Of a stretch of DNA of 64,000 bases, positions 7,250 to 33,734 are shown piece by piece. The notes beneath the pieces were generated by a model. The model saw only the letters and a list, made by a program, of their open reading frames with translations. It was not told where the DNA came from and did no database searches. Numbering within the stretch: the stretch's first letter is position 1; each line of letters opens with the position of its first letter. The stretch lies in NCBI RefSeq assembly GCF_026125825.1, contig NZ_JAHCKK010000015.1, positions 629-64,628 on the forward strand, read 5' to 3'. The translations under genes were made by a program, and so were the position numbers. The DNA comes from Hydrogenophaga sp. (GTDB taxonomy: Bacteria; Pseudomonadota; Gammaproteobacteria; Burkholderiales; Burkholderiaceae_C).

Positions 7250-7273
7250 ACCCCCTCTCCTGAAAGCCCTGAC

Positions 7274-7951: not shown

Positions 7952-7954
7952 ACC

Positions 7955-8635
7955 ATGACCACTGCCCCACCCGACCTCCCTATCGATGCCAACGTCGCGC
8001 GCGCCGCGCGCCTCGACACCCCCACCCTGTCCGACGCGCTGGACAAGCTGGGCATCCTGGGCCAGTGCCACAAGATCAAGCCGCGCGACGCGGGCTTTCG
8101 CATGGCCGGGCGCGCCTGGACCCTCAAGTACGGCCCCGCCGCCTCCCCCTGCGGCACGGTGGGCGACTACATCGACGACGTGGCCCCCGGCAGCGTGGTC
8201 GTGCTGGACAACAACGGCTGCGACAACGCCACCGTCTGGGGCGACATCCTGACCGAAATCGCGCACCGGCGCGGCATCGCCGGCACCGTCATCAATGGCA
8301 TCAACCGCGACACCCACCTCTGCCTGTCGCTGGGCTACCCGGTGTTCTCGATCGACCACTGGATGCGCACCGGCAAGGACCGCGTGCAGGTCGAAGCCAC
8401 CGGCGTGCCGGTGAACGTCGGCGGCGCACGCGTCGCGCCGGGCGACATCCTCAAGGGCGACACCGACGGCGTCGTCGTGATTCCCAAGGAGCACGAGGAC
8501 CGCGTGCTGGAGATCGCCGAAGCCATCGAGGCGGCCGAGAACCGCATCCGCGAAACCGTGCGCGCCGGCGTGCGCCTGGACGAGGCGCGCCGGCAGTTCA
8601 AGTACCACCAACTCCAGACCCGCGAGGCCACATGA
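7955..8635 (+). CDS. RraA-family protein, copy 2
   Basis: 226 aa. Has TPTLSDALDKLG, VWGDILTE, NRDTHL and GDTDGVVVIP. Starts 3 nt after copy 1. Confidence 0.85.
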   Translation: MTTAPPDLPIDANVARAARLDTPTLSDALDKLGILGQCHKIKPRDAGFRMAGRAWTLKYGPAASPCGTVGDYIDDVAPGSVVVLDNNGCDNATVWGDILTEIAHRRGIAGTVINGINRDTHLCLSLGYPVFSIDHWMRTGKDRVQVEATGVPVNVGGARVAPGDILKGDTDGVVVIPKEHEDRVLEIAEAIEAAENRIRETVRAGVRLDEARRQFKYHQLQTREAT

Positions 8636-10274: not shown

Positions 10275-10291
10275 GTTCTCATTACGAATAA

Positions 10292-10337
10292 TGGTGCGGC
10301 TGGCAGGAATTGAACCCACGACCCCTTGGTTCGTAGC
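10292..10337 (-). tRNA. truncated tRNA-Arg(ACG): 3' half only (anticodon loop to CCA); att-type scar, not a functional gene
   Basis: The minus strand reads G-CTACGAA-CCAAG-GGGTC-GTGGG-TTCAATT-CCTGC-CAGCCGC-A-CCA. These are anticodon loop, 3' anticodon stem, variable loop, T-arm, acceptor 3' strand and CCA. No matching GCGGCTG acceptor 5' strand or D-arm lies upstream. Confidence 0.7.
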
Positions 10338-10638
10338 TACCAGATCATCTTTAAGTTGTTGATTTATATAGGCTCTGTGACCGCTCAGTGTACCAAAACT
10401 ACCCTGTTTAGACGTGTATTTCAGAGCCCAGTCCCGCAAAAGTCCCGCAGAGAAATTGCGTGCGAAGATACATCGACCAATTTCTGCGAACGGGGCGCAG
10501 ACGTTTTCTGTAGCGTGAGCAGTCGCCCGGTGAGTGTTGTGAAGCGACAAAAATGCGCCCGCTCCTTCTGAGCTGTCGGGGAGATAGGTGTCGATAACTA
10601 TATCTTATCGGCACTAATTTATATCAGAGAGCAGGGCG

Positions 10639-10894
10639 ATGCCAACGAAAAGTACGAGAGTCTCCCGGGGCGTCCAAGTCGATGACGTTTGGGCCGCGGC
10701 CGACGGCGTGCTTGCCCAACGCAAGCGGCCCACGATCGAGCGCGTGCGCACGCACCTCGGTCGCGGATCCGCGCCGGCGCCGCCACCTTGAAGACTTCAC
10801 CATTCACGTGCCGCAAGGTCGGTCAGAGCCCCTTTCTGCGCGAGTTGATCATTCCCTTTGGACGATCTGGATACGTCGTGTTGAGTTCCACTGA
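10639..10894 (+). pseudogene. decayed KfrA_N-like DNA-binding protein gene fragment
   Basis: ATG 10639 gives MPTKSTRVSRGVQVDDVWAAADGVLAQRKRPTIERVRTHLGRGS, then a stop at 10789-10791. This resembles the KfrA N-terminal domain. The expected RHL-type continuation appears in another frame (RRRRHLEDF...) ending at 10894, and the long coiled-coil part is missing. Confidence 0.35.
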
Positions 10895-10945
10895 TCTCTG
10901 CCGCTCTACGGGGGTCAGTTTTCAACGGAAGCCAACAGGCGGGCT

Positions 10946-11728
10946 CTACAACTGCAGTGCAAACGTCCTTCGTGCCACTTCAAGTTCTGGCATCAACTTG
11001 TTCACGACATCGTCGCGTGACATGCGCGAAGTGGCCACGGAAAGACTCATAGCCCCCAGCAACTCACCCTTTCCATTGCGCACCGGCACGGCAATGGAAC
11101 GCAAGCCAATTTCCAGCTCTTCGTCACTCATCGAATAACCGCACTCGCGCGCAGCCTGCACCTCCTTCATCAGTGCCGCCACGTCAGTCTTTGTTTTCGG
11201 CGTAATCGCCTGGCGACTCATTCGCTGAAGGCGGAATTCAACCTCCTCGTCTGACATACCCGCGAGAAGCACTCGCCCGGTTGCAGAACAATAGGCGGGC
11301 AATCGCGCGCCGATACCGAGTCCGAAAGACAAGCTGCGCCGCTGAGTTGAGCGTGCAACGAAAACGACAAACTGCGAGTCCAGCACCGCCAGCGACGCGG
11401 ACTCGCGCGTGCGCTCACTAGTGATCTCCAGGATGGGCTGCGCCACCTTGGTCAGGGGCGTAGAGTTCACGTAGGCGTGCACCAGCCGCAAGGTGCGCGG
11501 CTCGAGAAAAAAATGCCGCCCCGATGCTCGCGCGTAGCCTAGCTTGACGAGGGTAAGCAGGGCGCGGCGAGTCGAGGCCTTGCTGTGGCCTGTGATATCG
11601 GCCGCTTCGGTCAGCGTCAGAGGCGAATTGCTGACGCCGAAGGCCTCGATCAGGAGTAGGCCCTTCTCCAGACCCATGACGTATTCCTTGTCAACTGCAC
11701 GCGCTTCATCGTCCATTTGCGGCCCCAC
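10946..11728 (-). CDS. IclR-family transcriptional regulator (TphR/PcaR-like), divergent from the oxygenase operon
   Basis: Has LEKGLLLIEAF, an HTH (LTLTEAADITGHSKASTRRALLTLVKLGY) and an IclR effector domain. The longest ORF starts at GTG 11728. Alternative starts are ATG 11716, or ATG 11677 preceded by AAGGA. Confidence 0.9.
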   Translation of the reverse strand: MGPQMDDEARAVDKEYVMGLEKGLLLIEAFGVSNSPLTLTEAADITGHSKASTRRALLTLVKLGYARASGRHFFLEPRTLRLVHAYVNSTPLTKVAQPILEITSERTRESASLAVLDSQFVVFVARSTQRRSLSFGLGIGARLPAYCSATGRVLLAGMSDEEVEFRLQRMSRQAITPKTKTDVAALMKEVQAARECGYSMSDEELEIGLRSIAVPVRNGKGELLGAMSLSVATSRMSRDDVVNKLMPELEVARRTFALQL

Positions 11729-11740
11729 TCGAAGTTGAAT

Positions 11741-11757
11741 AAGTTCGGTATTCGAAC
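11741..11757. promoter_or_regulatory. candidate IclR operator, copy 1 (AAGTTCGGTATTCGAAC)
   Basis: Contains the inverted repeat GTTCG-N5-CGAAC. A near-identical copy lies 83 bp downstream. Confidence 0.45.
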
Positions 11758-11773
11758 ATTTTGCCGGATTTTG

Positions 11774-11802
11774 TTGACCTTCATCAACTCAAAAAATACA
11801 GT
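11774..11802 (+). promoter_or_regulatory. candidate sigma70 promoter of the oxygenase operon
   Basis: TTGACC (11774-11779), a 17-nt spacer, then TACAGT (11797-11802). Lies between the two operator-like repeats. Confidence 0.4.
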
Positions 11803-11823
11803 CGCGGTTCACCAAACGGTCAA

Positions 11824-11840
11824 AAGTTCGGTATCCGAAT
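11824..11840. promoter_or_regulatory. candidate IclR operator, copy 2 (AAGTTCGGTATCCGAAT)
   Basis: 15 of 17 positions identical to 11741-11757. Lies between the candidate promoter and the oxygenase start codon. Confidence 0.45.
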
Positions 11841-11868
11841 TCTTCCAAGGCAAGAACCCCACTGCATC

Positions 11869-13128
11869 ATGAGCGTCACCGCCCCTGCGAATAGCGCACC
11901 CCTAACCTTCTGGCCACCTGGGAACCTCACCCGCGTGCCATACCACCTGTACCAGGAACCGGCCGTGCTCGACGCCGAGCAACAGCGCATCTTCGAAGGC
12001 GCGACCTGGAACTACCTGTGTCTCGAAGCCGAGTTGCCACAACCCGGCGGCTACCGCACGACGTTCCTCGGCCGCATGCCGGTGGTGGTGGCGCGCGACA
12101 GCGACGGCGAGGTGTACGCGTTCGAGAACCGCTGCTCGCACCGCGGCGCACTGATCGTCCTGGACGACGGCGGCACCGCGCGTGACTTCCAGTGCGTGTA
12201 CCACGCATGGCGTTATGACCGCCAGGGCAACCTCAAGGGCATCGCGTTCCAGAACGGCGTAAACGGAGAAGGCGGCATGGACCCTGCTTTCTGCATGAAG
12301 AGTCATGGTCCGCGCAAATTGAGAACGAGTGTGTTTTGTGGCCTGGTATTTGGCAGCCTGAGCGACGACGTGCCCGACCTGGAGGACTACCTCGGCCCGG
12401 AAATCGCGCGCGGCATCTCGCGCGTGCTGCACAAGCCGGTGCAGATCCTCGGCCGCTTCAAGCAGACGCTGCCCAACAACTGGAAGCTCTACGTGGAGAA
12501 CGTGCGCGACACGTACCACGCGAGCCTGCTGCACGTGTTCTTCACCACGTTCCGGCTCAACCGCCTTTCGCAGAAGGGCGGCGTGGTGGTGAGCGAATGT
12601 GGCGGCAACCACATCAGCTTCTCCGCCATCGACCCCATCGCCGAAAATAGCGAGGACTACAAGACCGAGGAGCTGCGTTCGGAGAAGGACGACTTCAAGC
12701 TCGAGGACGCCACGCTGTTGAAAGGAATAGACGAGTTCGGCGATGGCGTGACGCTGCAGATCCTCTCGGTATTTCCGGGCTTCGTGCTGGCGCAGATACA
12801 GAACACCATCGCGGTACGCCAGGTGCTGCCCGAAGGCCTGGAGACCACCGCCCTGAATTGGGTGTACCTCGGCTTCCAGGACGACACACCCGAGCTGCGC
12901 ACCATGCGTCACAAGCAGTCCAACCTGATCGGGCCGGCCGGCTTCGTATCGATGGAGGACGGCGCTGTGGGCGGCTTTGTGCAACGCGGCATTGCCTCCG
13001 CTGGCGCGCAGGAAGCCATCGTCGAGATGGGCGGCGACAGCGTGCGCTCGCAGAGCAGCCGCACCACGGAAGCGTCCGTGCGCGGCTTCTGGAAAGCCTA
13101 CCGCCTGCACATGGGAGCGGATGCATGA
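11869..13128 (+). CDS. Rieske aromatic ring-hydroxylating dioxygenase alpha subunit, terephthalate 1,2-dioxygenase (TphA2)-like
   Basis: 419 aa from ATG 11869. Rieske motif CSHRG...CVYHAW and mononuclear-iron motif [16 protein letters not shown] overlap with the beta subunit. The overall residue pattern matches my recollection of TphA2 far better than NagG. Confidence 0.9.
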
Positions 13129-13601
13129 ACGCGGTGATCGACACCGCGAGCGCGTTGGCGCTCAACGCGCATTGCGCGCGCTGCATCGACAACGACGAGC
13201 TCGAAGCCTGGACGCAGTTCTTCACCGAACACTGCCTCTACCGCGTGACCACCGCCGACAACCATGCGCAAGGCATGGAAGCCAGCCTGATCTACGCCGA
13301 CTCGCGCGCCATGCTCAACGACCGCGTGCTCTCACTGCGCACCGCCAACGTCTACGAGAAACAACGTTACCGCCACCTGGTGGGCCTGCCCTCCCTGCTG
13401 GAGGACACGCCGCGCGGGCGCCGCAGCGAAACCCCGTTTGTGGTGGTGCGCATCATGCGTGGCGGCGAGACCAGCCTCTTCGCCACCGGGCGCTACCTCG
13501 ACGAGCTGGTGATCGATGGAGGCGATACCCTGCGCCTGGCCAGCCGTGTGGTGGTCTGCGACAGCCACAACATCGACACGCTGCTGGCCATTCCCCTGTG
13601 A
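13125..13601 (+). CDS. ring-hydroxylating dioxygenase beta (small) subunit, TphA3-like
   Basis: 158 aa. SnoaL/NTF2-like small-subunit pattern ([27 protein letters not shown]-terminal DTLLAIPL). Confidence 0.9.
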
Positions 13602-13608
13602 GCAAGCC

Positions 13609-14643
13609 GTGAGCACCCCGCACCTCATACGCATCGCCGGGATGGCCACCGCCATCCCCTGCGCCGCTGGTCAGACAGTGCTCGACGCAGTGCGACAGGC
13701 CGGCTACGAGATGCCGTTCTCGTGCAACTCGGGCGTGTGCGCGAGCTGCAAGGGCCGCGTCGTCTCGGGCCGGGTGAACCCCGGCGCGGCGGGTGAGCAT
13801 ACGCTCACGGCGGACGAGATCGCGCACGGACAGGTGCTGTTCTGCCAGGCGCGCCCGCTCACCGACATCGAGATCGAACCGCGCCAGATCGAGAAAACCG
13901 ATCCGAACGCGCGCCGCCAGCTCGCCGCCAGGGTCATGCGCATCGACTTTCTGGCCAGCGACGTGGCGCGCCTCAAGCTGCGTTTTCCGGCGGGCGAGAA
14001 GGTGAAGTTCAAGGCCGGCCAGTACCTGCAGGTGCTGCTGCCCGACGGCCAGCGCCGCAGCTTCTCCATGGCCAACCCGCCGCACCAGAACGATGGCGCC
14101 GAGCTGCATATCCGCATGCTGGAAGGCGGCGCGTTCTCGCATTGGCTCGCGCACGACCTCAAGGTGGGTGACCACCTCCGGGTCGAACTGCCGCATGGCG
14201 ACTTTCACCTGCGCGAGGGCAGCACCGCGCCCATCGTGATGCTCGCCAGCGGCACCGGCTTCGCACCCATCAAGTCGATGGTCGAGGACGGCCTGCGCCG
14301 GGGCCAGGCACGCGAGATCGCACTCTACTGGGGCGCGCGCACCGAGAAGGACCTGTACCTGCTCGACCTGGCGCGCGGCTGGGGAGAGCAGGCCGGCCTG
14401 CGCTTCGTGCCCGTGCTCTCCGAACCCGAGGCCGGCTGGAGCGGTCGCACCGGCTTCGTGCACCAGGCCGTGCTGCAAGACCACGACAGTCTTGCCGGCC
14501 ACCAGGTCTACGCCTGCGGCGCGCCTGCCATGGTGAGCGCGGCGCGCAGCGATTTCGTCGAAACCCGCGGCCTGCCGCCCGATGCGTTCTTCTGCGACGC
14601 GTTCGTGGTGGCCCAGCCCCGCACCTCCGCGCTGACCGACTGA
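13609..14643 (+). CDS. dioxygenase reductase component: N-terminal plant-type [2Fe-2S] ferredoxin fused to an FNR-type FAD/NAD(P)H reductase (TphA1-like)
   Basis: GTG 13609 chosen (ATG 13642 is possible). Has CNSGVCASC...C, RRSFSMANPPH (RxYS-type flavin motif) and GTGFAPIKS (NAD site). Confidence 0.85.
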   Translation: MSTPHLIRIAGMATAIPCAAGQTVLDAVRQAGYEMPFSCNSGVCASCKGRVVSGRVNPGAAGEHTLTADEIAHGQVLFCQARPLTDIEIEPRQIEKTDPNARRQLAARVMRIDFLASDVARLKLRFPAGEKVKFKAGQYLQVLLPDGQRRSFSMANPPHQNDGAELHIRMLEGGAFSHWLAHDLKVGDHLRVELPHGDFHLREGSTAPIVMLASGTGFAPIKSMVEDGLRRGQAREIALYWGARTEKDLYLLDLARGWGEQAGLRFVPVLSEPEAGWSGRTGFVHQAVLQDHDSLAGHQVYACGAPAMVSAARSDFVETRGLPPDAFFCDAFVVAQPRTSALTD

Positions 14644-14668
14644 AGCACACCCGAAGAAGAGCCATTCC

Positions 14669-15889
14669 ATGACCCATCCCAACCCCTACGACAACGTTCC
14701 CACCAGCGACTTCGACCCGTACGCCACCGAGGTGCTGGCCAACCCCTATCCCCACTACGAGCAGCTGCGCGAACTCGGCCCCTGGGCCTGGCTGGAGCGC
14801 TACGGCGTGCTTGCGGTCGCACGCCACGACGAAGTGCAGCGCATCCTGTCTCAGCCCGACATCTTCTGTTCCAGCGCGGGCGTGGGCCTTGCCAACTTCC
14901 ACACCGAGACGCCCTGGCGCAAGCCCAGCATCATTCTCGAAGCAGACCCGCCCCACCACAGCCGCACCCGCAAGGTGGTGGCGCGCGTGCTCTCGCCCGC
15001 ATCGATCGGACGCCTGCGCGCCACTTTCGAGGACGTGGCCGCGCGCATGGTCGACGAGCTCGTGGAACGCGGCTCGTTCGACGCCGCCAAAGAACTGTGC
15101 GAGGCCTTTCCCATTAAGGCCTTCGGCGACGCGGTGGGCCTGCCCGCCGAGGGGCGCGAGCACCTGCTGCCCTACGGTGACATGGTGTTCAATGGCTTCG
15201 GCCCGATCAACGAGCGTTTCCAAGACCGAATGAACAGCTCGGGCGAAGCGGTGAACTGGATCGCCAAGGTCTGCCAGCGCGACGCGCTCACGCCCGACGG
15301 CCTGGGCGCCCAGCTGTTCGCCGCCGCCGACGCGGGCGAGATAGGCCACGACGAGGCCGGCATGCTGGTTCGCACCCTGCTCTCCGCCGGGCTGGACACC
15401 ACCGTGTTCACCCTGTGCAACGCCTTCACCAGCTTCGCGCGCAACCCCGGTCAATGGGCCCTGCTGCGCGACGACCCCTCGCTGGCGCGCCAGGCACTCG
15501 AAGAGGTACTGCGCTACGACAGCACCTTCCACTCTTTCTACCGCACCAGCACCCAGGACGTGGAACTCGGCGGCATCACCGTGAAGCAGGGCCAGAAGAT
15601 CGTGGTGTTCATCGCCTCGGCCAACCGCGACCCGCGCCGCTGGCCCGAAGCCGACCGCTTCGACATCACCCGCCGCGCCACCGGCCACATGGCCTTCGGC
15701 ACGGGCATTCATGGCTGCGCCGGCCAGATGATGGCGCGCCTCGAAGGCGAGATCGTGCTCACCGCACTGGCCCGCCGCGTGGCCTCGATCCGCCTCGACG
15801 GCGAACCGGTCCAGCACTTCAACAACACGGTGCGCGGGCTCAAGAGCATGCCCGTGACGGTCGAGCCGCTGCTGGCCGCCGTGCACTGA
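14669..15889 (+). CDS. cytochrome P450, CYP199A-like (para-substituted benzoate oxidase/demethylase type)
   Basis: 406 aa. Heme-thiolate loop FGTGIHGCAGQ, I-helix SAGLDTTV, ExxR (EEVLR). Has PWRKPSIILEADPP and EGREHLLPY blocks as I recall them in CYP199A4. Confidence 0.9.
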   Translation: MTHPNPYDNVPTSDFDPYATEVLANPYPHYEQLRELGPWAWLERYGVLAVARHDEVQRILSQPDIFCSSAGVGLANFHTETPWRKPSIILEADPPHHSRTRKVVARVLSPASIGRLRATFEDVAARMVDELVERGSFDAAKELCEAFPIKAFGDAVGLPAEGREHLLPYGDMVFNGFGPINERFQDRMNSSGEAVNWIAKVCQRDALTPDGLGAQLFAAADAGEIGHDEAGMLVRTLLSAGLDTTVFTLCNAFTSFARNPGQWALLRDDPSLARQALEEVLRYDSTFHSFYRTSTQDVELGGITVKQGQKIVVFIASANRDPRRWPEADRFDITRRATGHMAFGTGIHGCAGQMMARLEGEIVLTALARRVASIRLDGEPVQHFNNTVRGLKSMPVTVEPLLAAVH

Positions 15890-15927
15890 CATCCCGCCCC
15901 ATTCGAACTAGAAGAGAGAAACCCACG

Positions 15928-16251
15928 ATGCCCCAGATCGTCTACGTACAACCCGACGGCTCCCGAGAAGCCGTGCCCGCCAGTCCCGGCGCTACCGTCA
16001 TGATGACCGCTGTCGGCCACGGCATTCCCGGCATCGTCGCCGAGTGCGGCGGCTCCGCCATGTGCGCCACCTGCCACGTGTACGTGGACCCGGCCTCGAT
16101 CGGCTTCCTGCCGCCCATCAGCGACGTCGAGGACGAAATGCTGGCCAGCGCCGCGGGCGAGCGCCGCGAACACAGCCGGTTGGGCTGCCAGCTCGCGCTG
16201 GCGCCCGGCGTGGACCAGCTGATCGTGCACATCCCGGAGCGGCAGGTCTGA
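15928..16251 (+). CDS. [2Fe-2S] ferredoxin, adrenodoxin/putidaredoxin type
   Basis: 107 aa from ATG 15928. Cluster ligands CGGSAMCATC...C(QL). Confidence 0.9.
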   Translation: MPQIVYVQPDGSREAVPASPGATVMMTAVGHGIPGIVAECGGSAMCATCHVYVDPASIGFLPPISDVEDEMLASAAGERREHSRLGCQLALAPGVDQLIVHIPERQV

Positions 16252-17426
16252 TGGCCCACGGCACCGTCATCGTCGGCACCGGGCAGGGCGGCTTCCAGCT
16301 CGCGGCCTCGCTGCGCGATTCGGGTTATGCCGATCCCATCACCCTGGTCGGCGACGAGCCCGGCCTGCCTTACCAGCGCCCCCCGCTGTCCAAGGCCTTC
16401 CTTCAAGGCAAGGTGGACGACACCGGCCTGCTGCTGCGCCCGCCCCCGTTCTACCAGCGCATCGATGCCCGCGTGCTCGGCGGCACGCGCGTGGCGCGCA
16501 TCGACCGCGCGGCGCGTGGCGTGCACCTCTCCAGCGGCCAGACCCTGCCCTACGACCACCTGGTGCTGGCCACCGGCGCGACCGCGCGCACCCTGTGCGT
16601 GCCCGGAGCGGGGTTGTCCGGCGTGCACGTGCTGCGCGGTCTGGAGGACGCGCGGCGCATCCGAGAGCAACTGGCCCGCGCGCGCGCGGTGGCCGTGGTC
16701 GGCGCCGGCTTCATTGGCTTGGAACTCGCGGCCGTGGCGCGCGGCCAGGGCCTGCCGATGCACGTGATCGAGGCCACGGCACGGCCCCTGCTGCGCGCCC
16801 TCTCCGAGCCCATGGCGCGACACCTGCAAGCCTTCCACGAAGCCCAGGGCACGCAATTCCACCTGAACACGCAGCTCGACGCCATCGAAGGCGAGGACGG
16901 CCGCGCCACCGGCCTGCGCCTGCACGGCGGTGGCCGCATCGTCGCCGACCTCATCGTGATCGCGGTAGGCGTCACGCCCAACGACCAGCTGGCGCGCGAC
17001 GCCGGGCTGGCGGTGGGCAATGGCATCGAGGTCGACGAGCTGCTGCTCACCAGCGACGCCGCCATCTCCGCGCTCGGCGACTGCGCGAACTTTCCGTTCG
17101 CGGCCGATGGCGGCTCCCGCGTGCGCATCGAGTCGGTACAGAACGCCGTTGATCAGGCGCGCTGCATCGCCGCGCGCCTGTGCGGTCAACCCCTGCCGTA
17201 CGCCAAGGTGCCCTGGTTCTGGAGCGAGCAAGGCCCTTGCCGGCTGCAGATGGCCGGCCTGGCCGCGCCGGGCGACCGCAGCGACATCGAGGGCGATCCG
17301 GCCAGCGGCCGCTTTTCGGTGCTGCGCTACCGCGGCGATCAACTCAGCGCCGTCGAATCCCTCAACGACCCTGCCGCCCACATGCGCGCGCGCACGGCCC
17401 TCGCGCCGGTGCTAGCACCGACCTGA
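16251..17426 (+). CDS. FAD-dependent ferredoxin--NAD(+) reductase (putidaredoxin-reductase type)
   Basis: ATG 16251 overlaps the ferredoxin stop (TGATG). Has VIVGTGQGG, the GD motif and a second Rossmann VAVVGAGFIGLELA. Confidence 0.9.
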   Translation: MAHGTVIVGTGQGGFQLAASLRDSGYADPITLVGDEPGLPYQRPPLSKAFLQGKVDDTGLLLRPPPFYQRIDARVLGGTRVARIDRAARGVHLSSGQTLPYDHLVLATGATARTLCVPGAGLSGVHVLRGLEDARRIREQLARARAVAVVGAGFIGLELAAVARGQGLPMHVIEATARPLLRALSEPMARHLQAFHEAQGTQFHLNTQLDAIEGEDGRATGLRLHGGGRIVADLIVIAVGVTPNDQLARDAGLAVGNGIEVDELLLTSDAAISALGDCANFPFAADGGSRVRIESVQNAVDQARCIAARLCGQPLPYAKVPWFWSEQGPCRLQMAGLAAPGDRSDIEGDPASGRFSVLRYRGDQLSAVESLNDPAAHMRARTALAPVLAPT

Positions 17427-17478
17427 GCTCCCTCAGTCCCATTCGACATCCACACCTTCCCACAGAAAGAGACAACAC

Positions 17479-18234
17479 ATGACAGCAGCATCCCGGGTCA
17501 TCGCGGTCACTGGCGGCGCCAGCGGCATCGGTTTCGCCTTCTCCGAAGCCCTCGCGCGCGCGGGCCACCAGGTCGTCATCGCCGACCTGCGCGGTGCCGT
17601 CGAAGCGGCCGAACGCCTCAGTGCCCAGGGCCTGAAGGCCATCGGCACGCAGACCGATGTGGTCAAGCCCGCCGACGTGGCGGGCATGGTCGAACAGGCC
17701 GTGAAGGCGTTCGGCCGGCTCGACGTGCTGGTGAACAACGCCGGCCTGTTCACCACGCTCACGCTCAAACCGTTCGACCAGATCAGCGACGCCGAGTGGA
17801 TGCGGGTGATGGAGGTCAACACCCTGGGGCCTTTCGTGTGCGCCAAAGCGGTCGTGCCCGAAATGCGCAAGAACGGGTTCGGCCGCATCGTGAACATCGC
17901 GTCCACCACGCCGATCAAGGGCACGCCCAACATGCTGCACTACGTGGCCAGCAAGGGCGCGGTGATCGCGTTCACGCGCTCGCTAGCCCGCGAACTCGGC
18001 AAGGACGACATCACCGTCAACGCCATTGCCCCGGGCTTCACGCTGAGCGACGGTGTGCTCGACAACGACCTGCACAGCAAGATGGGCGACGTGGTGCGCA
18101 AGACCAGCCGCTCGCTGCAGCGCGACCAGGTGCCTGAAGACCTGGTGGGCGCCCTGCTCTTCCTAGCCAGCGACGGCGCGGGCTTCATCACCGGCCAGAC
18201 CATCGCCGTCGACGGTGGCTCGGTATTCATCTGA
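17479..18234 (+). CDS. short-chain dehydrogenase/reductase (SDR)
   Basis: 251 aa. Has TGGASGIG, NNAG, the YVASK catalytic pair and C-terminal ITGQTIAVDGG. Confidence 0.9.
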   Translation: MTAASRVIAVTGGASGIGFAFSEALARAGHQVVIADLRGAVEAAERLSAQGLKAIGTQTDVVKPADVAGMVEQAVKAFGRLDVLVNNAGLFTTLTLKPFDQISDAEWMRVMEVNTLGPFVCAKAVVPEMRKNGFGRIVNIASTTPIKGTPNMLHYVASKGAVIAFTRSLARELGKDDITVNAIAPGFTLSDGVLDNDLHSKMGDVVRKTSRSLQRDQVPEDLVGALLFLASDGAGFITGQTIAVDGGSVFI

Positions 18235-18248
18235 TCGGTTGACTCACC

Positions 18249-19697
18249 ATGACCGACACCGCATACGGCAAGCCTTTCCTCTACATCGATGGCGAATTCA
18301 TCGAAGGCGGCGACCGCCAACACCAGGACATCATCAACCCCGCCAACGGCGAGGTGATCGGCTCGTTGCCGCACGCGCGCCGCGACGACCTTGACCGCGC
18401 ACTGAACGCGGCGCAACGCGCCTTCGAGAGCTGGCGCAAGAGTTCGCCGCTCGAGCGCTCGAAGGTGCTGCGCCGCGTGGCCGAGCTCACGCGCGAACGC
18501 GCACCGCAGGTCGCCCGCCAGATCACTCTCGACCAGGGCAAGCCGCTGAGCGAGGCGCTGCTGGAGGTGACCACCTGTGCCGAACACGCAGAGTGGCACG
18601 CCGAAGAATGCCGCCGCATCTATGGCCGCGTGATCCCCGCACGCCTGCCCCACGTGCGCCAGCTGGTGCTGCGCGAGCCCGTGGGCGTGTGCGTGGCCTT
18701 CACGCCCTGGAACTTTCCGTTTAACCAGGCCATCCGCAAGATGGTGGCGGCGATCGGCGCGGGTTGCACGCTTGTGCTGAAGGGGCCAGAGGATTCGCCG
18801 GGCGCGGTGATCGCGCTCGCGCGCATGTTCCACGACGCGGGTCTGCCCCCGGGCGTGCTCAACGTGGTGTGGGGTGTGCCGGCCGAGGTGTCGGACCACC
18901 TGATCCGCTCGCCGATCTCGCGCAAGGTATCGTTCACCGGCTCGGTGCCGGTGGGCAAGCAGCTGGCGTCGCTCGCCGGCCTGCACATGAAGCGCATCAG
19001 CATGGAGCTGGGCGGGCACTCGCCGGTGGTGGTGTTCGACGACGCAGACGTGGACGACGCGGCCCATCTGCTGGCGCGTTTCAAGGCGCGCAACGCGGGG
19101 CAGCTGTGCATTGCACCCAGCCGCTTCTTCGTGCAGGAGAAGGTGTACGACCGCTTTCTCGACACCTTCACGAAAGCCTACGGTGGCTTGAAGGTGGGCG
19201 ACGGCATGGACAAGGACACGCAGATGGGCCCCCTGGCGCACCTGCGCAGGGTCGATGCCATGGAAGGCTTGGTGGCCGATGCGCTGGAGCGTGGCGCGAA
19301 GCTGGCCAGCGGCGGCACGCGGCTCGCTGGCCCTGGCTACTTCTACCCGCCCACCATCCTCACCGACATTCCCGACGACGCGCGCCTGATGGTCGAAGAA
19401 CCCTTCGGTCCGGTCGCGCCGATCACGCGCTTCAAGGACACCGACGAGGTATTGAAGCGCGCCAACGCCCTGCCCTTCGGCCTCACCGGTTTCGTTTTCA
19501 CCGGCTCCATCAAGACCTCGGAGCGCATGGTCAACGGCCTCGAGGTGGGCATGGTCAACGTGAACCATTTCGGCATCACGCTGGCCGAGACGCCGTTCGG
19601 TGGCGTGAAGGACAGCGGCATCGGCAGCGAAGGCGGCAGCGAAACCTTCGACGGCTACCTCGTCACTAAATTCGTTTCGCAGGCAAGCCCTGCTTGA
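18249..19697 (+). CDS. NAD(P)-dependent aldehyde dehydrogenase
   Basis: 482 aa. Has FTPWNFP, ELGGHSP and the catalytic-Cys region NAGQLCIAPSR. Confidence 0.9.
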   Translation: MTDTAYGKPFLYIDGEFIEGGDRQHQDIINPANGEVIGSLPHARRDDLDRALNAAQRAFESWRKSSPLERSKVLRRVAELTRERAPQVARQITLDQGKPLSEALLEVTTCAEHAEWHAEECRRIYGRVIPARLPHVRQLVLREPVGVCVAFTPWNFPFNQAIRKMVAAIGAGCTLVLKGPEDSPGAVIALARMFHDAGLPPGVLNVVWGVPAEVSDHLIRSPISRKVSFTGSVPVGKQLASLAGLHMKRISMELGGHSPVVVFDDADVDDAAHLLARFKARNAGQLCIAPSRFFVQEKVYDRFLDTFTKAYGGLKVGDGMDKDTQMGPLAHLRRVDAMEGLVADALERGAKLASGGTRLAGPGYFYPPTILTDIPDDARLMVEEPFGPVAPITRFKDTDEVLKRANALPFGLTGFVFTGSIKTSERMVNGLEVGMVNVNHFGITLAETPFGGVKDSGIGSEGGSETFDGYLVTKFVSQASPA

Positions 19698-19772
19698 TCA
19701 CCAGTACTACAAGAAGCCAGCACCGCCCAGGGGGCCGGACCCGCCTTTCCCTTCAATCCAGGAGACAACCTC

Positions 19773-20825
19773 ATGATGCAACGCAGAACCCTCATCAAAT
19801 CGGCGGCGGCAGCCGCTTCCCTTGGAGCCCCCACCCTTGGCGTCTTCGCCCAGCAAGTGGTAACCCTGAAGTTCCATACCTTCATGGCGCCGACCTCGAA
19901 TGTCTATCTCAATGCACACAAGGCATGGATGTCGAAAGTGGAGAACGACTCGGGCGGACGTATCCGCTTCGAGGGCTTTCCTGCCATGCAGCTGGGGGGC
20001 TCACCAAGTCAACTTTTCGACCAGGCACGGGATGGTGTTGTCGATATCGTATGGACTTTGGCTGGACTTACCCCCGGTCGATTCCCTCGGACCGAAGTGT
20101 TCGAACTGCCGTTCATGACCATGGACGGCATCGGAGCGTCGCGTGCCGCCTGGGAGTACCTCGAAACCCACGCCAGCGATGAGTTCAAGGACGTCCAACC
20201 ACTCGCTTTTCATACCCATGGTCCAGGAGTGCTGCACTCGAAAAGCAAGGCCATCAACAGCGCTTCCGACCTGCGCGGCCTGAAGATGCGAGGGCCGACC
20301 CGCCAAGCGACTAAGTTGCTCGCAGCAGCAGGAGCATCCGCGGTAGGCATGCCGCTGCCACAGATTCCAGACGCGCTGTCCAAAGGCGTCATTGACGGCG
20401 CAGCCTTGCCTTGGGAAGTGATTCCTTCGGTCAAGGTGCATGAGCTTGTTCAGCACCACAGCGAGTTCGCGCCCGGCAAGCCAGCTCTTTACAACACGGC
20501 GTTTGTGATGGTGATGAACAAAAGAAAATATACATCGTTGCCTCCGGATATCAAAAAGGTGATCGACGACAACTCGGGCCTGGAAACCTCGGCTTGGTTC
20601 GGCAAGGTGCAACAAGATCATGACCCCATCAGTCGCAAGATGGCGACCGATCGAGGCAACAAGGTACACGTGTTCAGCGAATCGGAAACCAGCGAGTTTG
20701 TCAAACTGACTGGCACCATCGCCAGCGAATGGGTCCAGGAGATGGACAAGCGCGGGCAGGACGGTGCCAAGCTCTTGGCTGGCGCAAAGGCGCTCATTGC
20801 CAAACATAAACCAAAGGCTGCATGA
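19773..20825 (+). CDS. TRAP-transporter substrate-binding protein (DctP family), copy 1
   Basis: 350 aa. Tat/Sec-like leader ([15 protein letters not shown]..), the DctP-type LKFHTF start of the mature protein, and [10 protein letters not shown] with the conserved carboxylate-binding Arg context. Confidence 0.9.
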
Positions 20826-21772
20826 GCGGCCTTGCGCGCCTGGCCATCTCGATCGGCGATCCGAACGGCATCGGACCGGAGATCACGCTAAAGGCACTTG
20901 CCACTCTGACAGAGTCTGAGCGCGACCGTATTACGCTGTTCGGCCCGAATTCGGTGCTGCGCCGCTGCGCCGAGCAATTGAACCTTAGCGGGATGCTAGA
21001 TGGTGTTCGTTGCAACGAGGTAGGCGCCCTCGATCCGGCTGCAGCTGTACCTGGTCGCATCGACGCGGCCGCTGGCGCCTCGTCGGTGGCCAGCGCTACG
21101 GCGGCCATTCAGGCTGCGCAGGCTGGCGAGTTCGACGCCGTGATCGCCTGTCCTCACCACGAGACAGCGATCACGCAGGCAGGTATAGCGTTCAGCGGGT
21201 ACCCCTCTCTTGTGGCGCGTGTGTGCGGCCAATCTGCCGACTCCGTTTTCTTGATGCTGGTGGGGGCGGGCTTACGCATCGTGCACGTCACGCTCCACGA
21301 GAGCGTTCAAACAGCACTTGATCGTCTGAGCACCGACCTGATCGTGCGCGCCACTCAGGCAGGCATCGTCGCGTGTCAGCGGCTGGGCGTGGAAACGCCT
21401 CGCATCGGCATGTTCGGTATCAATCCACACGCATCCGAAGGTGAGCTTTTCGGACCGGAGGACGCTCGCTTGATGGTGCCTGCGGTGGCGCAGCTGCGCT
21501 CAGCAGGCCACCATGTCAGTGGGCCCACAGGTGCAGACACGCTGTTGGCAAACAGGCAGCACGATCTCTATGTGGCCGTCTTCCACGACCAGGGTCACAT
21601 TCCAATCAAGTTGCTGGCGCCCCACGCCGCAAGTGCCCTCAGCGTGGGAGGCAACGTCGTGCTGTCCAGTGTCGGGCATGGAAGTGCCATGGACATCGCC
21701 GGCAAGGGAATTGCCAGTCCCGAGGCCTTGCTTCGCACGATTTACCTGCTGAACTCCACGCTGAGCGAGTGA
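20822..21772 (+). CDS. PdxA-family NAD-dependent dehydrogenase, TphB (dicarboxy-dihydrodiol dehydrogenase)-like
   Basis: 316 aa. Has [26 protein letters not shown] and [16 protein letters not shown] overlap with the TRAP SBP gene. Confidence 0.85.
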
Positions 21773-21817
21773 CTTCCTAAATTTGACAGTCTCCTCCTAT
21801 GGTCAACCCAAACTGCG

Positions 21818-22247
21818 CTAACAAAGTCGTTCGAATTCCGACTGTTCGGGTGCGATCGCGATTCGTGAGGCGGACTGCTTCAGACGGTAGCTCTTGCCTT
21901 CGAACCCCAGCGTCGAGCAGCGGTGTATCAGTCGATCAAGGATGGTGGTGGCCATGGTGACGTCGGCCAGGTACTTGCTCAGGTCCTGCACCAAAAGATT
22001 TGAGGTGATGACGATGGCGCGGCGCAGGTTGTAGCGCTGGTGAACGATGGCATAGAGGAGTTCGTCGCTGATGTCGGCGATGCGCCGGGCCAGAGACTGG
22101 TCATCTAGCACGAGCAGGTCCGAGGACTCCACACATCCCACGGCCTGCACGCTGGTGCTTGGCTGTGGCGAACATGAGGACTCGGTCCTTGCGGTTCTCG
22201 TCGTGATCTTGTGGATTTGGCGATAGCGCCGGATGTTTCGTGCCGAC
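21818..22247 (-). mobile_element. IS21-family IstB (helper ATPase) remnant, frameshifted and 5'-truncated
   Basis: 21818-22150 encodes the Walker-B to C-terminal part (DLLVLDD..., ITSN, LDRLIHR, GKSYRLK). A degenerate Walker-A-like stretch (VGTKHPAL) lies upstream in a different frame. No istA is present. Confidence 0.7.
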
Positions 22248-22430: not shown

Positions 22431-23483
22431 ATGATCAACCGCAGAACCATCGTTCAGTTGGCAGTAGGGATGGCCTTGGGCGCTCCCTCGCTGACAGGCT
22501 TTGCTCAGCAGTCGATCACTTTGCGATTTCACACTTTCATGTCTCCCATGTCCAACGTATGGGTCAGCATGAACAAGGTATGGATGGAAAAGGTGCAACG
22601 GGAATCAGATGGGCGCATCCGGTTTGAGGCGTACCCCGCGATGCAGCTTGATGGCGCGCCTGTGCAGCCATACGACCAGGCACGGGATGGCGTGGCTGAC
22701 ATCGTTTGGACACTGACCGACTATTCACCTGGAGGCTTTCCTTGCAGCGAGGTGTTTGTCCTGCCGTTCATGACGACCAACGCCGAGGCTACTTCCAAGG
22801 CTTTCTGGGAGTTCATCAAGACAAAAGCGTCCAACGAACACAAGGAAGTGCATCCCATTGCAGTGCAGGTTCATAGGCCGGGGATGCTCCACACCCGCGA
22901 CCGCCTCTTTGAGGCTCCGTACGACTTGCGCGGCCTGAAAATGCGCGGTCCAACCAGACAAACTACGAAGATGCTGGGATACCTCGGCGCCAATGCTGTG
23001 GGCATGCCGCTGCCCAAGATTCCCGACGCACTGCAAAAGGGGCCTCTCGACGGTTGCGTGATCCCTTGGGATGTCGTTCCCTCCGTAAAGGTGCACGAAT
23101 TAACGAAGTTTCACAGTCAGTTCGATCCAGCCAGTGGCGCGCTCTACACCACGACATTCGTGATGGCAACAAACAAACGGAAGTACGAGTCCCTGCCGCC
23201 AGATGTCCGGAAGGTGCTGGACCCCAACTCGGGCATAACCGCTTCTGCGTCCTTGGGGCGCGCCCACCAATGTGGCGACGACCCTGCCCGCAAGTTGGTG
23301 GAGGCACGCGGCAACGTGACCCATAACTTCGGGCAGGTCGAAGCCCAAGAGTTCAGGCGCGCAGCAAGCCAGGTAGAGGTCGAATGGGTCAAGGACATGG
23401 AGAGCCGCGGCTTCGATGGTCGCGATCTTTTGTCAACAGCCCGGGCCTTGATCGAAAAACACACAAAAACTACCAAGACATAA
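22431..23483 (+). CDS. TRAP-transporter substrate-binding protein (DctP family), copy 2
   Basis: 350 aa from ATG 22431 (MINRRTIVQ...). Co-linear paralogue of 19773-20825, roughly half of positions identical by eye. No obvious Shine-Dalgarno upstream. Confidence 0.85.
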   Translation: MINRRTIVQLAVGMALGAPSLTGFAQQSITLRFHTFMSPMSNVWVSMNKVWMEKVQRESDGRIRFEAYPAMQLDGAPVQPYDQARDGVADIVWTLTDYSPGGFPCSEVFVLPFMTTNAEATSKAFWEFIKTKASNEHKEVHPIAVQVHRPGMLHTRDRLFEAPYDLRGLKMRGPTRQTTKMLGYLGANAVGMPLPKIPDALQKGPLDGCVIPWDVVPSVKVHELTKFHSQFDPASGALYTTTFVMATNKRKYESLPPDVRKVLDPNSGITASASLGRAHQCGDDPARKLVEARGNVTHNFGQVEAQEFRRAASQVEVEWVKDMESRGFDGRDLLSTARALIEKHTKTTKT

Positions 23484-23492
23484 AGACACTCC

Positions 23493-24275
23493 ATGAATCA
23501 ACTGCCCAAAGAAAACACCCCACGGCTGGCCAACCGGGTTGCGATCGTGACCGGCGCGGCGCAAGGTATCGGAGAGACATACGCTCGTGCATTGGCTCAA
23601 GAAGGTGCCTCCGTGGTCTGTGCCGATGTGCTGGACGCCACCGGGGTGGTCAACCAGATCATTGAGAAGGGTGGCCGGGCGGTGTTTGTCCACACAGACG
23701 TGACGTCCCGCGAATCGGTGGAGAAGATGGTTGGGTCCGCACTTCAGGCGTTCGGCCGCATTGACGTGCTGGTCAACAACGCCGCAATTTTCGGCAACCT
23801 TGCCCTCAAGCCGTTCGAGCAGATCGAGTCGACCGAGTGGGACAAGGTGATGTCCGTCAACGTGCGCGGCTCCTTCGAGTGCGCCAGAGCGGTCAGCCCC
23901 GTGATGCGTCAGCAGCGCTACGGCAAGATCATCAACATCGCCTCCGGCACGGTTTTCAAGGGCACGCCGCTCTTCCTGCACTACGTCACCTCCAAGGGCG
24001 CCGTGGTGGCGATGGCGCGCTGTCTGGCGCGTGAATTGGGTAACGACAATATCTGCGTCAATACACTGGCGCCGGGCCTGACCCTGAGCGCCAATGTCAG
24101 CGCAAATCCCGACTGGCAAGGCTCAATCGCTTCAGGCATCGTTTCGTCCCGCTGCATCAAGCGTGATCAGGTACCCGACGACCTGACCGGCACCTTGATC
24201 TACCTCGCCAGCGCCGACAGTGACTTTGTCACCGGTCAGGTGATTGTGGTTGATGGCGGATCGGTCACACATTGA
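23493..24275 (+). CDS. short-chain dehydrogenase/reductase (SDR), paralogue of 17479-18234
   Basis: 260 aa. Has TGAAQGIG, NNAA, YVTSK and VTGQVIVVDGG. Confidence 0.9.
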   Translation: MNQLPKENTPRLANRVAIVTGAAQGIGETYARALAQEGASVVCADVLDATGVVNQIIEKGGRAVFVHTDVTSRESVEKMVGSALQAFGRIDVLVNNAAIFGNLALKPFEQIESTEWDKVMSVNVRGSFECARAVSPVMRQQRYGKIINIASGTVFKGTPLFLHYVTSKGAVVAMARCLARELGNDNICVNTLAPGLTLSANVSANPDWQGSIASGIVSSRCIKRDQVPDDLTGTLIYLASADSDFVTGQVIVVDGGSVTH

Positions 24276-25750
24276 GCACTCCTATGCACGCCACAGCAGA
24301 ACTCTTGATCGATGGCCGGTGGATGCCCGCCAGCCAGGGCCTCGAAGTGCCCAGCCTGGACCCGGCCAACGGCAGCCAGATCGGTTGCTTCAGCGCTGCC
24401 ACCCGGGCAGACGCAGAGGCGGCCATTTCGGCTGCACGCAGAGCCTTTGAAAAGCCCACGTGGGCCCAGTCGCCGCGGCTGCGGCAGAACGTGATGAACG
24501 AATGGGCAAGCCGGCTAGAGCACAAGGCTGAAGCACTGGCCCAACTGCTAACGCAAGAGAATGGCAAGGTGATCGCGCAATCGCGGGGTGAGCTGATGGG
24601 AGCCATCTCGGAGATCCGTTACTACGCGGGTCTGGCCCGGCACATACCAGGCCACGTGCTCGAGGTGGAACCCGGCGTATTTTCCACGATGCTGAAAGAG
24701 CCGGCCGGCGTCGCCGGCATCATCGTCCCTTGGAACGCTCCCGTGATCCTGCTTATCCGGTCGATCACCCCCGCGTTGGCCGCTGGCTGTACTTGCGTGG
24801 TCAAGCCTGCACCGCAGTCCGCACTCATCACCGCTGCGGTGATCAGGGAACTGGCCGACGTGACTGGACTGCCGCCCGGTGTGGTGAACCTGGTGAGTGA
24901 GCAAGGCCACGACGTGGCGCAGTTGCTCACCTCCTCGCCAGAGGTGGATGTGGTCAGCTTCACGGGCTCCAACCTGACGGGGCAGCGCATCATGGCCGCC
25001 GCTGCTCCCACTATGAAGAAACTGTCGCTCGAACTGGGTGGCAAGTCATGCTGCCTGGTTTTTGAAGATGCCGATATCGACCACATCGCGCCTCAACTGG
25101 CTGCCGCTGCGACGGTCATCTCTGGTCAGCAATGCACGGCGGCGCGCCGGGTGTTGGTTCACGCGTCACGCTATGAGGCGATGAAAAAAGCGCTGGCCAA
25201 TGCACTGGCGGCAATCAAAGTGGCGCCCGGAAATACCCCGGGCGCCCAGATGGGTCCCTTGATCGATCTCTCTACCACTGAGTTGGTGCAACGTCGCATC
25301 GAGCAGGCGATGGACGACGCAGACGAAGTGATCCTGCGCGGTCAGCGTATCGGCGGAAACCTGCGGCTTGGCGGGTTTGTCTCGCCCACCTTGGTCGCGC
25401 ACCGGGATGCCAGTGCATCTTTTGTCCAAGAGGAGATTTTCGGCCCCTTGGTCGTGCTGGAAAAGTTTGAAACCGAAACCGAAGCGGTGGCGCGGGCCAA
25501 TCACACCGAGTTCGGGTTGTCCGCGAGTGTCTGGACCGAGCAGGGCGCGCGCGCCTGGCGTATCGCTCGAGCGCTGCGCAACGGCACCGTTTGGATCAAC
25601 GACCACAACAAGCTGTGCGCTGAAGCGGAGACCGGCGGCTATCGCCGCAGTGGCTTGGGCCGTCTCCACGGCTTTGACGCGTTGATCGATTTCACCGAGA
25701 TCAAACACATCTATCAGAACGTAGGTGTGCTTGATCCACCCAAGGGCTGA
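24272..25750 (+). CDS. NAD(P)-dependent aldehyde dehydrogenase (second copy; vanillin/benzaldehyde-DH-like context)
   Basis: Has ELGGKSC and the catalytic-Cys region ISGQQCTAARR. Starts at TTG 24272 (TTGA overlap with the SDR) or ATG 24284. Confidence 0.88.
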   Translation: MSTPMHATAELLIDGRWMPASQGLEVPSLDPANGSQIGCFSAATRADAEAAISAARRAFEKPTWAQSPRLRQNVMNEWASRLEHKAEALAQLLTQENGKVIAQSRGELMGAISEIRYYAGLARHIPGHVLEVEPGVFSTMLKEPAGVAGIIVPWNAPVILLIRSITPALAAGCTCVVKPAPQSALITAAVIRELADVTGLPPGVVNLVSEQGHDVAQLLTSSPEVDVVSFTGSNLTGQRIMAAAAPTMKKLSLELGGKSCCLVFEDADIDHIAPQLAAAATVISGQQCTAARRVLVHASRYEAMKKALANALAAIKVAPGNTPGAQMGPLIDLSTTELVQRRIEQAMDDADEVILRGQRIGGNLRLGGFVSPTLVAHRDASASFVQEEIFGPLVVLEKFETETEAVARANHTEFGLSASVWTEQGARAWRIARALRNGTVWINDHNKLCAEAETGGYRRSGLGRLHGFDALIDFTEIKHIYQNVGVLDPPKG

Positions 25751-25798
25751 CTCCACAAGCCTGCCCGAATCCTTAGTACTTATAGGAGAGAACGAATC

Positions 25799-26833: not shown

Positions 26834-26867
26834 TGTTTTCCCGATCCCACCACAACAGGAGACACAG

Positions 26868-28055: not shown

Positions 28056-28080
28056 GTCTTTCGCGCCCCGGTTGTCCTCC

Positions 28081-28121
28081 AGCGGCGGAGTTCGTCCAAA
28101 AGATGTTCCGCCGCTTTTCTT
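28081..28121 (+). terminator. hairpin + T-run between the SBP and permease genes (intra-operon attenuator/terminator)
   Basis: Perfect 9-bp stem AGCGGCGGA / TCCGCCGCT with a 17-nt loop, followed by TTTCTT. Confidence 0.55.
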
Positions 28122-28142
28122 CGTCCTTTTGTTCCTTAACTC

Positions 28143-32273: not shown

Positions 32274-32303
32274 GGTTGCACTTCTATCATGGTACCCGCC
32301 AAC

Positions 32304-32322
32304 CAGTCCACTTGATGGACTG
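32304..32322. promoter_or_regulatory. perfect palindrome CAGTCCA-N5-TGGACTG (candidate IclR operator)
   Basis: 7-bp perfect inverted repeat in the divergent intergenic region. Related GTCC-N7-GGAC lies at 32352-32366. Confidence 0.45.
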
Positions 32323-32334
32323 ACTATTCAAAAC

Positions 32335-33688: not shown

Positions 33689-33734
33689 GCGACTTCACTT
33701 TTCCACCCCACGACAGACAGCACCGGAGACACCT

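Follow-up and report, generated by a model that had tools for sequence, protein, structure and literature searches.

Organization of the locus

The stretch of DNA analyzed here, referred to as the window, comprises 64,000 nucleotides of Hydrogenophaga sp. (RefSeq assembly GCF_026125825.1, contig NZ_JAHCKK010000015.1, positions 629 to 64,628). Between positions 10946 and 21772 it carries a regulator gene divergent from a co-directional string of ten genes, in which a cytochrome P450 system and two dehydrogenase genes stand among genes for terephthalate (TPA) dioxygenation; the whole probably forms one IclR-controlled operon for growth on 4-methylbenzoate (p-toluate) via terephthalate. Genes were assigned from a listing of open reading frames (ORFs) and from Pfam and NCBIfam scans of the window. 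The families and order of the eleven genes agree with an earlier reading of the same DNA (the original prediction), and the same eleven were called independently on six public contigs. They are listed here with their control region; SDR, short-chain dehydrogenase/reductase; ALDH, aldehyde dehydrogenase; SBP, solute-binding protein; TRAP, tripartite ATP-independent periplasmic transporter.

10946-11716, minus strand: IclR-family regulator, PcaR/PcaU/PobR subfamily, divergent from the operon (Pfam HTH_IclR and IclR_C)
11741-11839, plus strand: control region, two 16-nt repeats around the promoter
11869-13128, plus strand: terephthalate 1,2-dioxygenase alpha subunit, TphA2 (PDB matches, conserved residues)
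13125-13601, plus strand: dioxygenase beta subunit, TphA3 (match to the beta chain of terephthalate dioxygenase)
13609-14643, plus strand: TphA1-like reductase, GTG start (Fer2, FAD_binding_6, NAD_binding_1; BenC-type domain order)
14669-15889, plus strand: CYP199-family P450 of the Thr244/TFHSFY subclade, predicted 4-methylbenzoate methyl hydroxylase
15928-16251, plus strand: putidaredoxin/HaPux-type [2Fe-2S] ferredoxin for the P450 (Pfam Fer2)
16251-17426, plus strand: FAD-dependent ferredoxin reductase for the P450 (Pyr_redox_2 and Reductase_C)
17479-18234, plus strand: SDR, predicted to convert 4-(hydroxymethyl)benzoate to 4-formylbenzoate (Pfam adh_short)
18249-19697, plus strand: ALDH, predicted to convert 4-formylbenzoate to terephthalate (Pfam Aldedh, 517 bits)
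19773-20825, plus strand: TRAP-type (DctP) periplasmic SBP, without membrane partners (Pfam DctP)
20822-21772, plus strand: TphB, PdxA-family dihydrodiol dehydrogenase/decarboxylase, predicted product protocatechuate

Three overlaps that had been pointed out earlier are real: ATGA between the alpha and beta genes, TGATG between the ferredoxin and ferredoxin reductase genes, and ATGA between the SBP gene and tphB. The remaining intergenic gaps in the string measure 7-75 bp, and no convincing terminator was found inside the ten-gene string. An ORF at 12977-13612 in the mechanical listing was considered as the beta subunit and rejected, as it has no Pfam, NCBIfam, or PDB match; the true frame starts at 13125. 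G+C content at third codon positions (GC3) is 0.84-0.90 from tphA2 through the ALDH gene, 0.67 in the SBP gene, 0.71 in tphB, and 0.70 in the IclR gene.

The 16-nt repeats of the control region (AAGTTCGGTATyCGAA, at 11741-11756 and 11824-11839) each contain a TTCG-N5-CGAA palindrome, and a sigma70-like promoter lies between them (11774-11802). The regulator scores 274 bits against TIGR02431, slightly below the cut-off of 284.75.

Terephthalate enzymes

The dioxygenase alpha subunit had been described as TphA2-like, a claim borne out by structure matches: 621 bits to 7vju_A and 619 to 7q04_D, as opposed to 266 to the salicylate 5-hydroxylase NagG (7c8z). It is equally set apart from the anthranilate dioxygenases, with 430 bits against the AndAc model (cut-off 750) and 97 bits for AntA. 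In terephthalate dioxygenase (TPADO), the residues holding TPA are R309, which is common to relatives, and N224, S243, and R390, which are specific to TPADO (Kincannon et al., PMC9060491); the set further includes I290 and the iron ligands H210, H215, and D356 (PMC9060491). Both arginines for the distal carboxylate, R309 and R390, whose conservation had been named as the point to check, are present in the alpha subunit of the window, as are N224, S243, I290, and the three iron ligands. The TPA motif is complete in 39 of the 40 TphA2 homologs encoded beside P450 cassettes, down to 54% identity; the remaining one is cut by the end of its contig.

The assignments of the beta subunit, the reductase, and the PdxA-like protein to Tph counterparts were likewise upheld, by PDB scores and by identities to an annotated canonical tphR-C-A2-A3-B-A1 operon used as the reference (Variovorax paradoxus VAI-C, locus L087). 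Identity to this operon is 65% for A2, 53% for A3, 67% for B, and 42% for A1 (the last over 337 amino acids). The beta subunit scores 161 bits to the TPADO beta chain 7q04_A versus 65 to NagH; TphB scores 387 bits to 8zj3/8zhy and 271 to TphB of Paraburkholderia xenovorans (4aty) versus 91-163 to PdxA and PdxA2 structures, and the NCBIfam PdxA models score it under their cut-offs. As judged from these scores and active-site residues, the tph genes of the window are genuine terephthalate genes. Terephthalate enrichments have been found to be dominated by Hydrogenophaga metagenome-assembled genomes (MAGs), one of which expressed TPADO alpha, beta, and reductase genes (PMC10576394).

The P450 system and the dehydrogenases

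By customary P450 nomenclature, members of a family share more than 40% identity and members of a subfamily more than 55%. The P450 of the window scores 450 bits to CYP199A2 (2fr7) and 442 to CYP199A4, and its identity to CYP199A2 over a trimmed alignment is 52%; of the earlier label "CYP199A-like", the CYP199 family thus stands and the CYP199A subfamily does not. The heme-thiolate motif FGTGIHGCAG and a DTT motif are present, and the catalytic Asp-Thr (acid-alcohol) pair is kept. In the pocket of CYP199A4, Arg92, Ser95, Ser244, and Arg243 hold the carboxylate, and Leu98, Phe182, Phe185, Ala248, and Phe298 line the ring (PMC11854964). In this numbering, the protein of the window keeps Arg92, Ser95, Arg243, Phe182, Phe185, Ala248, and Phe298; it carries Thr for Ser244, Ile for Leu98, and, in substrate recognition site 5 (SRS5) around Phe298, TFHSFY for PVQTFF. 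A hydrogen bond from Thr244 to the carboxylate is probably still feasible. Enzymes of the CYP199 family hold para-substituted benzoates through their carboxylate and attack the substituent in the para position; CYP199A4 is reported to hydroxylate the alpha carbon of 4-alkylbenzoates (PMC13139632).

The ferredoxin finds its top PDB match in 4ltu (115 bits), followed by putidaredoxins. Taken by their families, the P450, this ferredoxin, and the FAD-dependent reductase are a complete class I P450 system. An identical P450 protein is encoded on about 150 contigs, several complete Hydrogenophaga genomes among them. For Hydrogenophaga sp. PBL-H3, one P450 sequence in the 90%-identity cluster of the window P450 is deposited under two accessions (QHE75565.1 and QHE79991.1), a sign that this genome may hold the module twice.

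The second-best solved relative of the SDR is a benzylic alcohol dehydrogenase, (S)-1-phenylethanol dehydrogenase (2ew8, 203 bits); the nearest solved relatives of the ALDH are of the succinic semialdehyde dehydrogenase and alpha-ketoglutarate-semialdehyde types, whose substrates are carboxylate-bearing aldehydes. The solved relatives of both enzymes, as weak hints, agree with the proposed substrates. Names among 120 close homologs of the SDR are all generic and speak neither for nor against kinship with TsaC, and no specific NCBIfam family was found for the SDR, the ALDH, or the SBP.

Matched against TRAP SBP structures, the SBP scores 464 bits with 5im2 and about 306-314 bits with others; a literature lookup by PDB code for the ligands of the closest of these structures gave unrelated papers only. 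One of the loci compared below, from a Solimonas MAG (L027), has the order IclR, P450, ferredoxin, ferredoxin reductase, SDR, DctQ, DctM, TRAP SBP, TctC-type SBP, tphA2, tphA3, an order by which the TRAP system would go with the P450 cassette and the TphC-like SBP with tph. The TRAP SBP is thus probably part of the P450 module, and this pairing of the TRAP genes with the P450 cassette suggests p-toluate, not terephthalate, as the ligand of the orphan SBP in the window.

Linkage of the cassette to tph genes

Scanning a collection with a single genome for each species with the window P450 gave 80 CYP199 loci (the loci are cited by L numbers), onto which, together with six metagenomic contigs, the proteins of the window were mapped; tph genes were counted within 10 kb or within the flanks fetched. 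The window P450 falls in a monophyletic CYP199 subclade marked by Thr244 and TFHSFY, whose maximum identity to any sampled CYP199 protein lacking TFHSFY is 55%. Of the 52 subclade loci, 45 have an ortholog of the window SDR (66-98% identity) shortly 3' of the P450 gene, 34 have an ALDH ortholog, and 34 have tph genes at a distance of up to 10 kb; all three are absent from the 28 other CYP199 loci. Fisher p values range from about 1e-9 to 1e-17 and are not true probabilities, as related genomes were counted and are non-independent samples.

Carriers of the subclade are spread over three classes: Hydrogenophaga, Noviherbaspirillum, Neopusillimonas/Pusillimonas, Ramlibacter, and Polaromonas in the Betaproteobacteria; Solimonas in the Gammaproteobacteria; and Celeribacter, Mesobacterium, Roseobacter, Pseudorhodoplanes, Tardiphaga, Afipia, and Bradyrhizobium in the Alphaproteobacteria. 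Isolates with the identical or a nearly identical operon are Hydrogenophaga sp. RAC07, Root209, and PBL-H3 and H. palleronii NBRC 102513; Neopusillimonas maritima KCTC 62121, Celeribacter baekdonensis B30, and Noviherbaspirillum suwonense DSM 26001 are more distant carriers. At least four distinct gene orders are found, with tph upstream, downstream, or divergent and mostly as contiguous A2-A3-B-A1. The divergence of the P450 follows that of TphA2 (r = 0.99). Linkage kept through repeated rearrangement across three classes is a classic signature of a shared pathway; on this comparison, P450, SDR, ALDH, and TPADO have stayed together in evolution, and this in a single CYP199 subclade.

The GTTCG-N5-CGAAC palindrome is kept in the intergenic region divergent from IclR at many loci, be it in front of tphA2 or of the P450 gene. 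The IclR protein of the window is 65-72% identical to the P450-adjacent IclR of Ramlibacter, Ottowia, and other lineages, and thus closer to these regulators than to TphR of the canonical Variovorax operon (47%).

Two further observations concern loci related to the subclade. In a sister group of Rhizobiales MAGs (e.g., L059, 10001-12000; L062, 4012-6000), the P450 has TFHSFY and keeps Ser244, and neither tph nor the SDR or ALDH is among its neighbors; at two of the five loci, a homolog (60-61%) of the second SDR of the window (encoded within 22431-26833, see below) follows the P450. In Piscinibacter defluvii SH-1 (L060, 2185-3225), the P450, a member of the subclade, matches residues 1-347 only, with tphA2A3BA1 next to it and without ferredoxin, SDR, or ALDH genes; this locus may be a decayed cassette.

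Mosaic structure and mobility

The order tphA2-A3-A1, cassette, SBP, tphB is found only in Hydrogenophaga-type loci (L001-L018, L034); in L019, L021, and L028, A2-A3-B-A1 are contiguous. The cassette had been described as embedded in a tph operon. This holds for the present layout, and an insertion that split an ancestral tph operon is ruled out, since other lineages have contiguous tphA2A3BA1 beside the cassette and IclR adjoining the P450 gene. Read from these gene orders, the Hydrogenophaga layout is a derived mosaic rearrangement. Compared with the window, L003 and L007 show 100% identity through the SDR, 95-96% in the ALDH, 87% in the SBP, and 84% in tphB, and the recombination breakpoint relative to these two loci falls within the ALDH gene. 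This drop in identity, together with the low GC3 of the tail, argues that the SBP-tphB tail was exchanged by recombination.

The operon is part of an 11.5-kb module (10292-21773) whose genomic surroundings in Hydrogenophaga are of several kinds. At least three upstream contexts were seen (GreA/SpoT, a KfrA fragment, and a phage integrase), and shared homology runs from 10291/10292. The features at the borders of the module are:

10291-10345, minus strand: 3'-terminal part of a tRNA gene at the left border of the shared module (start of homology to six public contigs with differing upstream genes)
10639-10791, plus strand: truncated KfrA_N-type fragment (the same 50-amino-acid ORF is called with PF11740 in L003)
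21818-22150, minus strand: fragment of IstB, the IS21 helper (PF01695, profile positions 154-236 only)

No complete tRNA gene was found by ARAGORN in the whole window. The tRNA 3' fragment looks like the remnant of an attachment site, and the KfrA fragment looks like a scar of a plasmid or of the backbone of an integrative and conjugative element. On the right side, homology of L003 and L007 stops at 21773, one base past the tphB stop; the IstB fragment, which is absent from these two loci, joins the next module in the window and in five other contigs. A search for near-identical plasmid DNA gave as its best match 75% over Variovorax tphA2A3, so the island is not a segment of a known plasmid.

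Proposed pathway and alternatives

The genes suggest the following scheme. The orphan TRAP SBP would capture the aromatic acid, and the CYP199 P450, reduced by its own ferredoxin and FAD-dependent reductase, would hydroxylate 4-methylbenzoate to 4-(hydroxymethyl)benzoate. The SDR would convert the latter to 4-formylbenzoate and the ALDH 4-formylbenzoate to terephthalate. TphA2A3 with the TphA1 reductase would then form the dihydrodiol, which TphB would dehydrogenate and decarboxylate to protocatechuate. TPADO is strict for para-dicarboxylates and does not take 4-formylbenzoate as a substrate (PMC9060491), for which reason the ALDH step is required. The p-toluate scheme is the simplest one that uses every gene. 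The route from p-toluate through terephthalate to protocatechuate is the one originally predicted, and computation supports it well through the identity of the Tph proteins and the clade-specific linkage. Besides p-toluate as the substrate, we infer which reactions the SDR and ALDH carry out, what the SBP binds, and to which effector the regulator responds.

Several points weigh against the p-toluate scheme. The substrate is drawn from family chemistry and gene neighborhood only. About one third of the subclade loci have no tph genes in the DNA fetched; some of these are short contigs, but for at least five, 10 kb on either side was covered. Several loci that bear the SDR have no ALDH ortholog.

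The same chemistry may serve other or a broader set of para-substituted benzoates that end in a para-dicarboxylate, with p-toluate one of several; the candidates are dimethylbenzoates (giving substituted terephthalates), 4-(hydroxymethyl)benzoate, 4-formylbenzoate, and p-methylbenzyl alcohol or aldehyde derived from p-xylene. TPADO accepts 2-substituted terephthalates (PMC9060491), CYP199A4 takes many para-substituted benzoates, and the SDR and ALDH could handle more than one benzylic alcohol or aldehyde. Such breadth nevertheless seems rather unlikely, given that most of the pocket residues clamping a simple para-substituted benzoate are conserved and that the operon holds no other hint of extra ring substituents or of a p-xylene monooxygenase. 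The original prediction had itself allowed for a cassette that handles 4-methoxybenzyl alcohol, aldehyde, and acid. The P450 would then be a CYP199 O-demethylase of the usual kind, turning 4-methoxybenzoate or veratrate into 4-hydroxybenzoate, next to an SDR and ALDH with an unrelated role, e.g., on methoxybenzyl alcohol and aldehyde or on formaldehyde. CYP199A2, A4, and A35 are indeed best known as 4-methoxybenzoate demethylases, and the P450 of the window retains the Asp-Thr pair and the carboxylate anchors other than Ser244. The subclade departs, however, from the classical demethylases at SRS5 and Ser244; 4-hydroxybenzoate is not a TPADO substrate, and the operon has no 4-hydroxybenzoate hydroxylase. 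As TPADO needs para-dicarboxylates, O-demethylation would leave the linkage to tph (34 of 52 loci, in this subclade only) unexplained, and we consider it very unlikely.

Lastly, mobile elements could have juxtaposed two independent modules in Hydrogenophaga by accident. The end in a tRNA fragment, the KfrA and IstB fragments, the lower GC3 of the IclR, SBP, and tphB genes, and the breakpoint relative to L003 and L007 are all what such a history would leave. The partnership recurs, however, in other gene orders across Alpha-, Beta-, and Gammaproteobacteria at 54-100% protein identity; the genes are closely spaced, with overlapping starts and stops, behind a single promoter region and without an internal terminator, and the same regulator/operator pair heads tphA2 or the P450 gene depending on the lineage. 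An accident is likewise very unlikely. A wider claim can be attached to the p-toluate scheme, namely that the Thr244/TFHSFY subclade is a dedicated 4-methylbenzoate methyl hydroxylase and, with the SDR and ALDH, makes up a natural route to terephthalate that is widespread among Alpha-, Beta-, and Gammaproteobacteria of soil, groundwater, bog, and sea. This is put forward tentatively, with the odds somewhat against it. If it is true, terephthalate would be an ordinary intermediate of methyl-aromatic catabolism in nature, which would help to explain why tph genes are common away from plastic-polluted sites.

Comparison with known systems

With Comamonas-type tphR-C-A2-A3-B-A1 operons, the locus shares a two-subunit Rieske dioxygenase with the TPA motif, a Fer2-FAD-NAD reductase, a PdxA-family dehydrogenase, and a divergent IclR regulator. 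It differs in that six genes (P450, ferredoxin, ferredoxin reductase, SDR, ALDH, and SBP) part tphB from tphA2A3A1, and in having a TRAP/DctP SBP in place of TphC of the tripartite tricarboxylate transporter (TctC-type) family, which is absent from the operon; TctC-type genes lie elsewhere in the window, at 2365-3342 and about 33790-34715. With CYP199A2 and CYP199A4 of Rhodopseudomonas palustris, it shares the P450 family, the carboxylate anchors other than Ser244, the cage of Phe182, Phe185, and Phe298, and a HaPux-type ferredoxin; the P450 of the window nevertheless belongs to a separate subclade, and its SDR/ALDH/tph neighborhood is found with none of the other CYP199 homologs sampled.

TsaMBCD of Comamonas testosteroni T-2 reportedly oxidizes the methyl group of p-toluenesulfonate and p-toluate to a carboxylate. 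Together with xyl genes in engineered Escherichia coli, TsaMBCD is reported to convert p-xylene to terephthalate (PMC5460024). By gene composition, the logic of the two systems is alike (a methyl monooxygenase, an SDR, and an ALDH, feeding tph), whereas a three-component class I P450 here takes the place of the Rieske oxygenase TsaM and its reductase TsaB. A P450 route within a tph operon had been claimed as previously undescribed, and no description of one was found in searches of open-access papers and preprints. Public annotations of the genes are generic ("cytochrome P450", "SDR family", "Rieske domain protein"), which is why current pipelines miss the pathway.

Terephthalate catabolism is central to the upcycling of polyethylene terephthalate, and biological conversion of p-xylene or p-toluate to terephthalate currently proceeds via the Rieske system TsaMB. 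If the proposed pathway is correct, it would offer a P450 alternative with matched ferredoxin, reductase, and alcohol and aldehyde dehydrogenases, a set of parts that possibly also includes a transporter-binding protein and a regulator-operator pair. The changes of Ser244 to Thr and of PVQTFF to TFHSFY provide hypotheses for tuning a model P450 from O-demethylation to methyl hydroxylation. In ecological terms, so wide a distribution of the linkage suggests that natural pathways pass through terephthalate, and the recurrent 11.5-kb module in Hydrogenophaga suggests how the trait may spread.

Neighboring genes in the window

Directly after the IstB fragment, a second module (22431-26833) encodes a TRAP SBP, an SDR, an ALDH, and a VanA/DdmC-like Rieske monooxygenase; identities to the first module are 55% for the SBP, 52% for the SDR, and 32% for the ALDH. 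The best solved relative of the Rieske monooxygenase is dicamba demethylase DdmC (192 bits). By composition, the second module resembles a Tsa-type set for methyl oxidation; its VanA-like Rieske protein was considered as a clear TsaM and rejected, the best solved relative being DdmC and no TsaM-named chain appearing at E <= 1e-10. Farther on, an IclR gene (minus strand) is followed by genes for a LigXa_C-type Rieske oxygenase, a TctC-type SBP, an SDR, and a reductase with FNR and Fer2 domains (31512-36517), a layout that we take to resemble the Comamonas isophthalate operon iphRACBD. Neither the VanA-like nor the LigXa-like oxygenase obtained a specific family from NCBIfam. If the resemblance to iphRACBD holds, the Rieske monooxygenase/SDR/ALDH module next to the isophthalate-like operon may be a twin of the P450 module that leads from m-toluate to isophthalate.

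Between these two aromatic modules lies a five-gene LIV-type ATP-binding cassette transporter (26766-31475; Peripla_BP_6, two permeases, two ATPases); in Ramlibacter rhizophilus (L043), a similar system follows the P450 cassette. Outside the island, in host DNA of 70% G+C, a LigB-family extradiol dioxygenase-like gene and two RraA/aldolase-like genes (6248-8635) are surrounded by acyl-CoA dehydrogenase, CoA-transferase, and thiolase-like genes; the genes at 6248-8635 may provide ring-cleavage functions.

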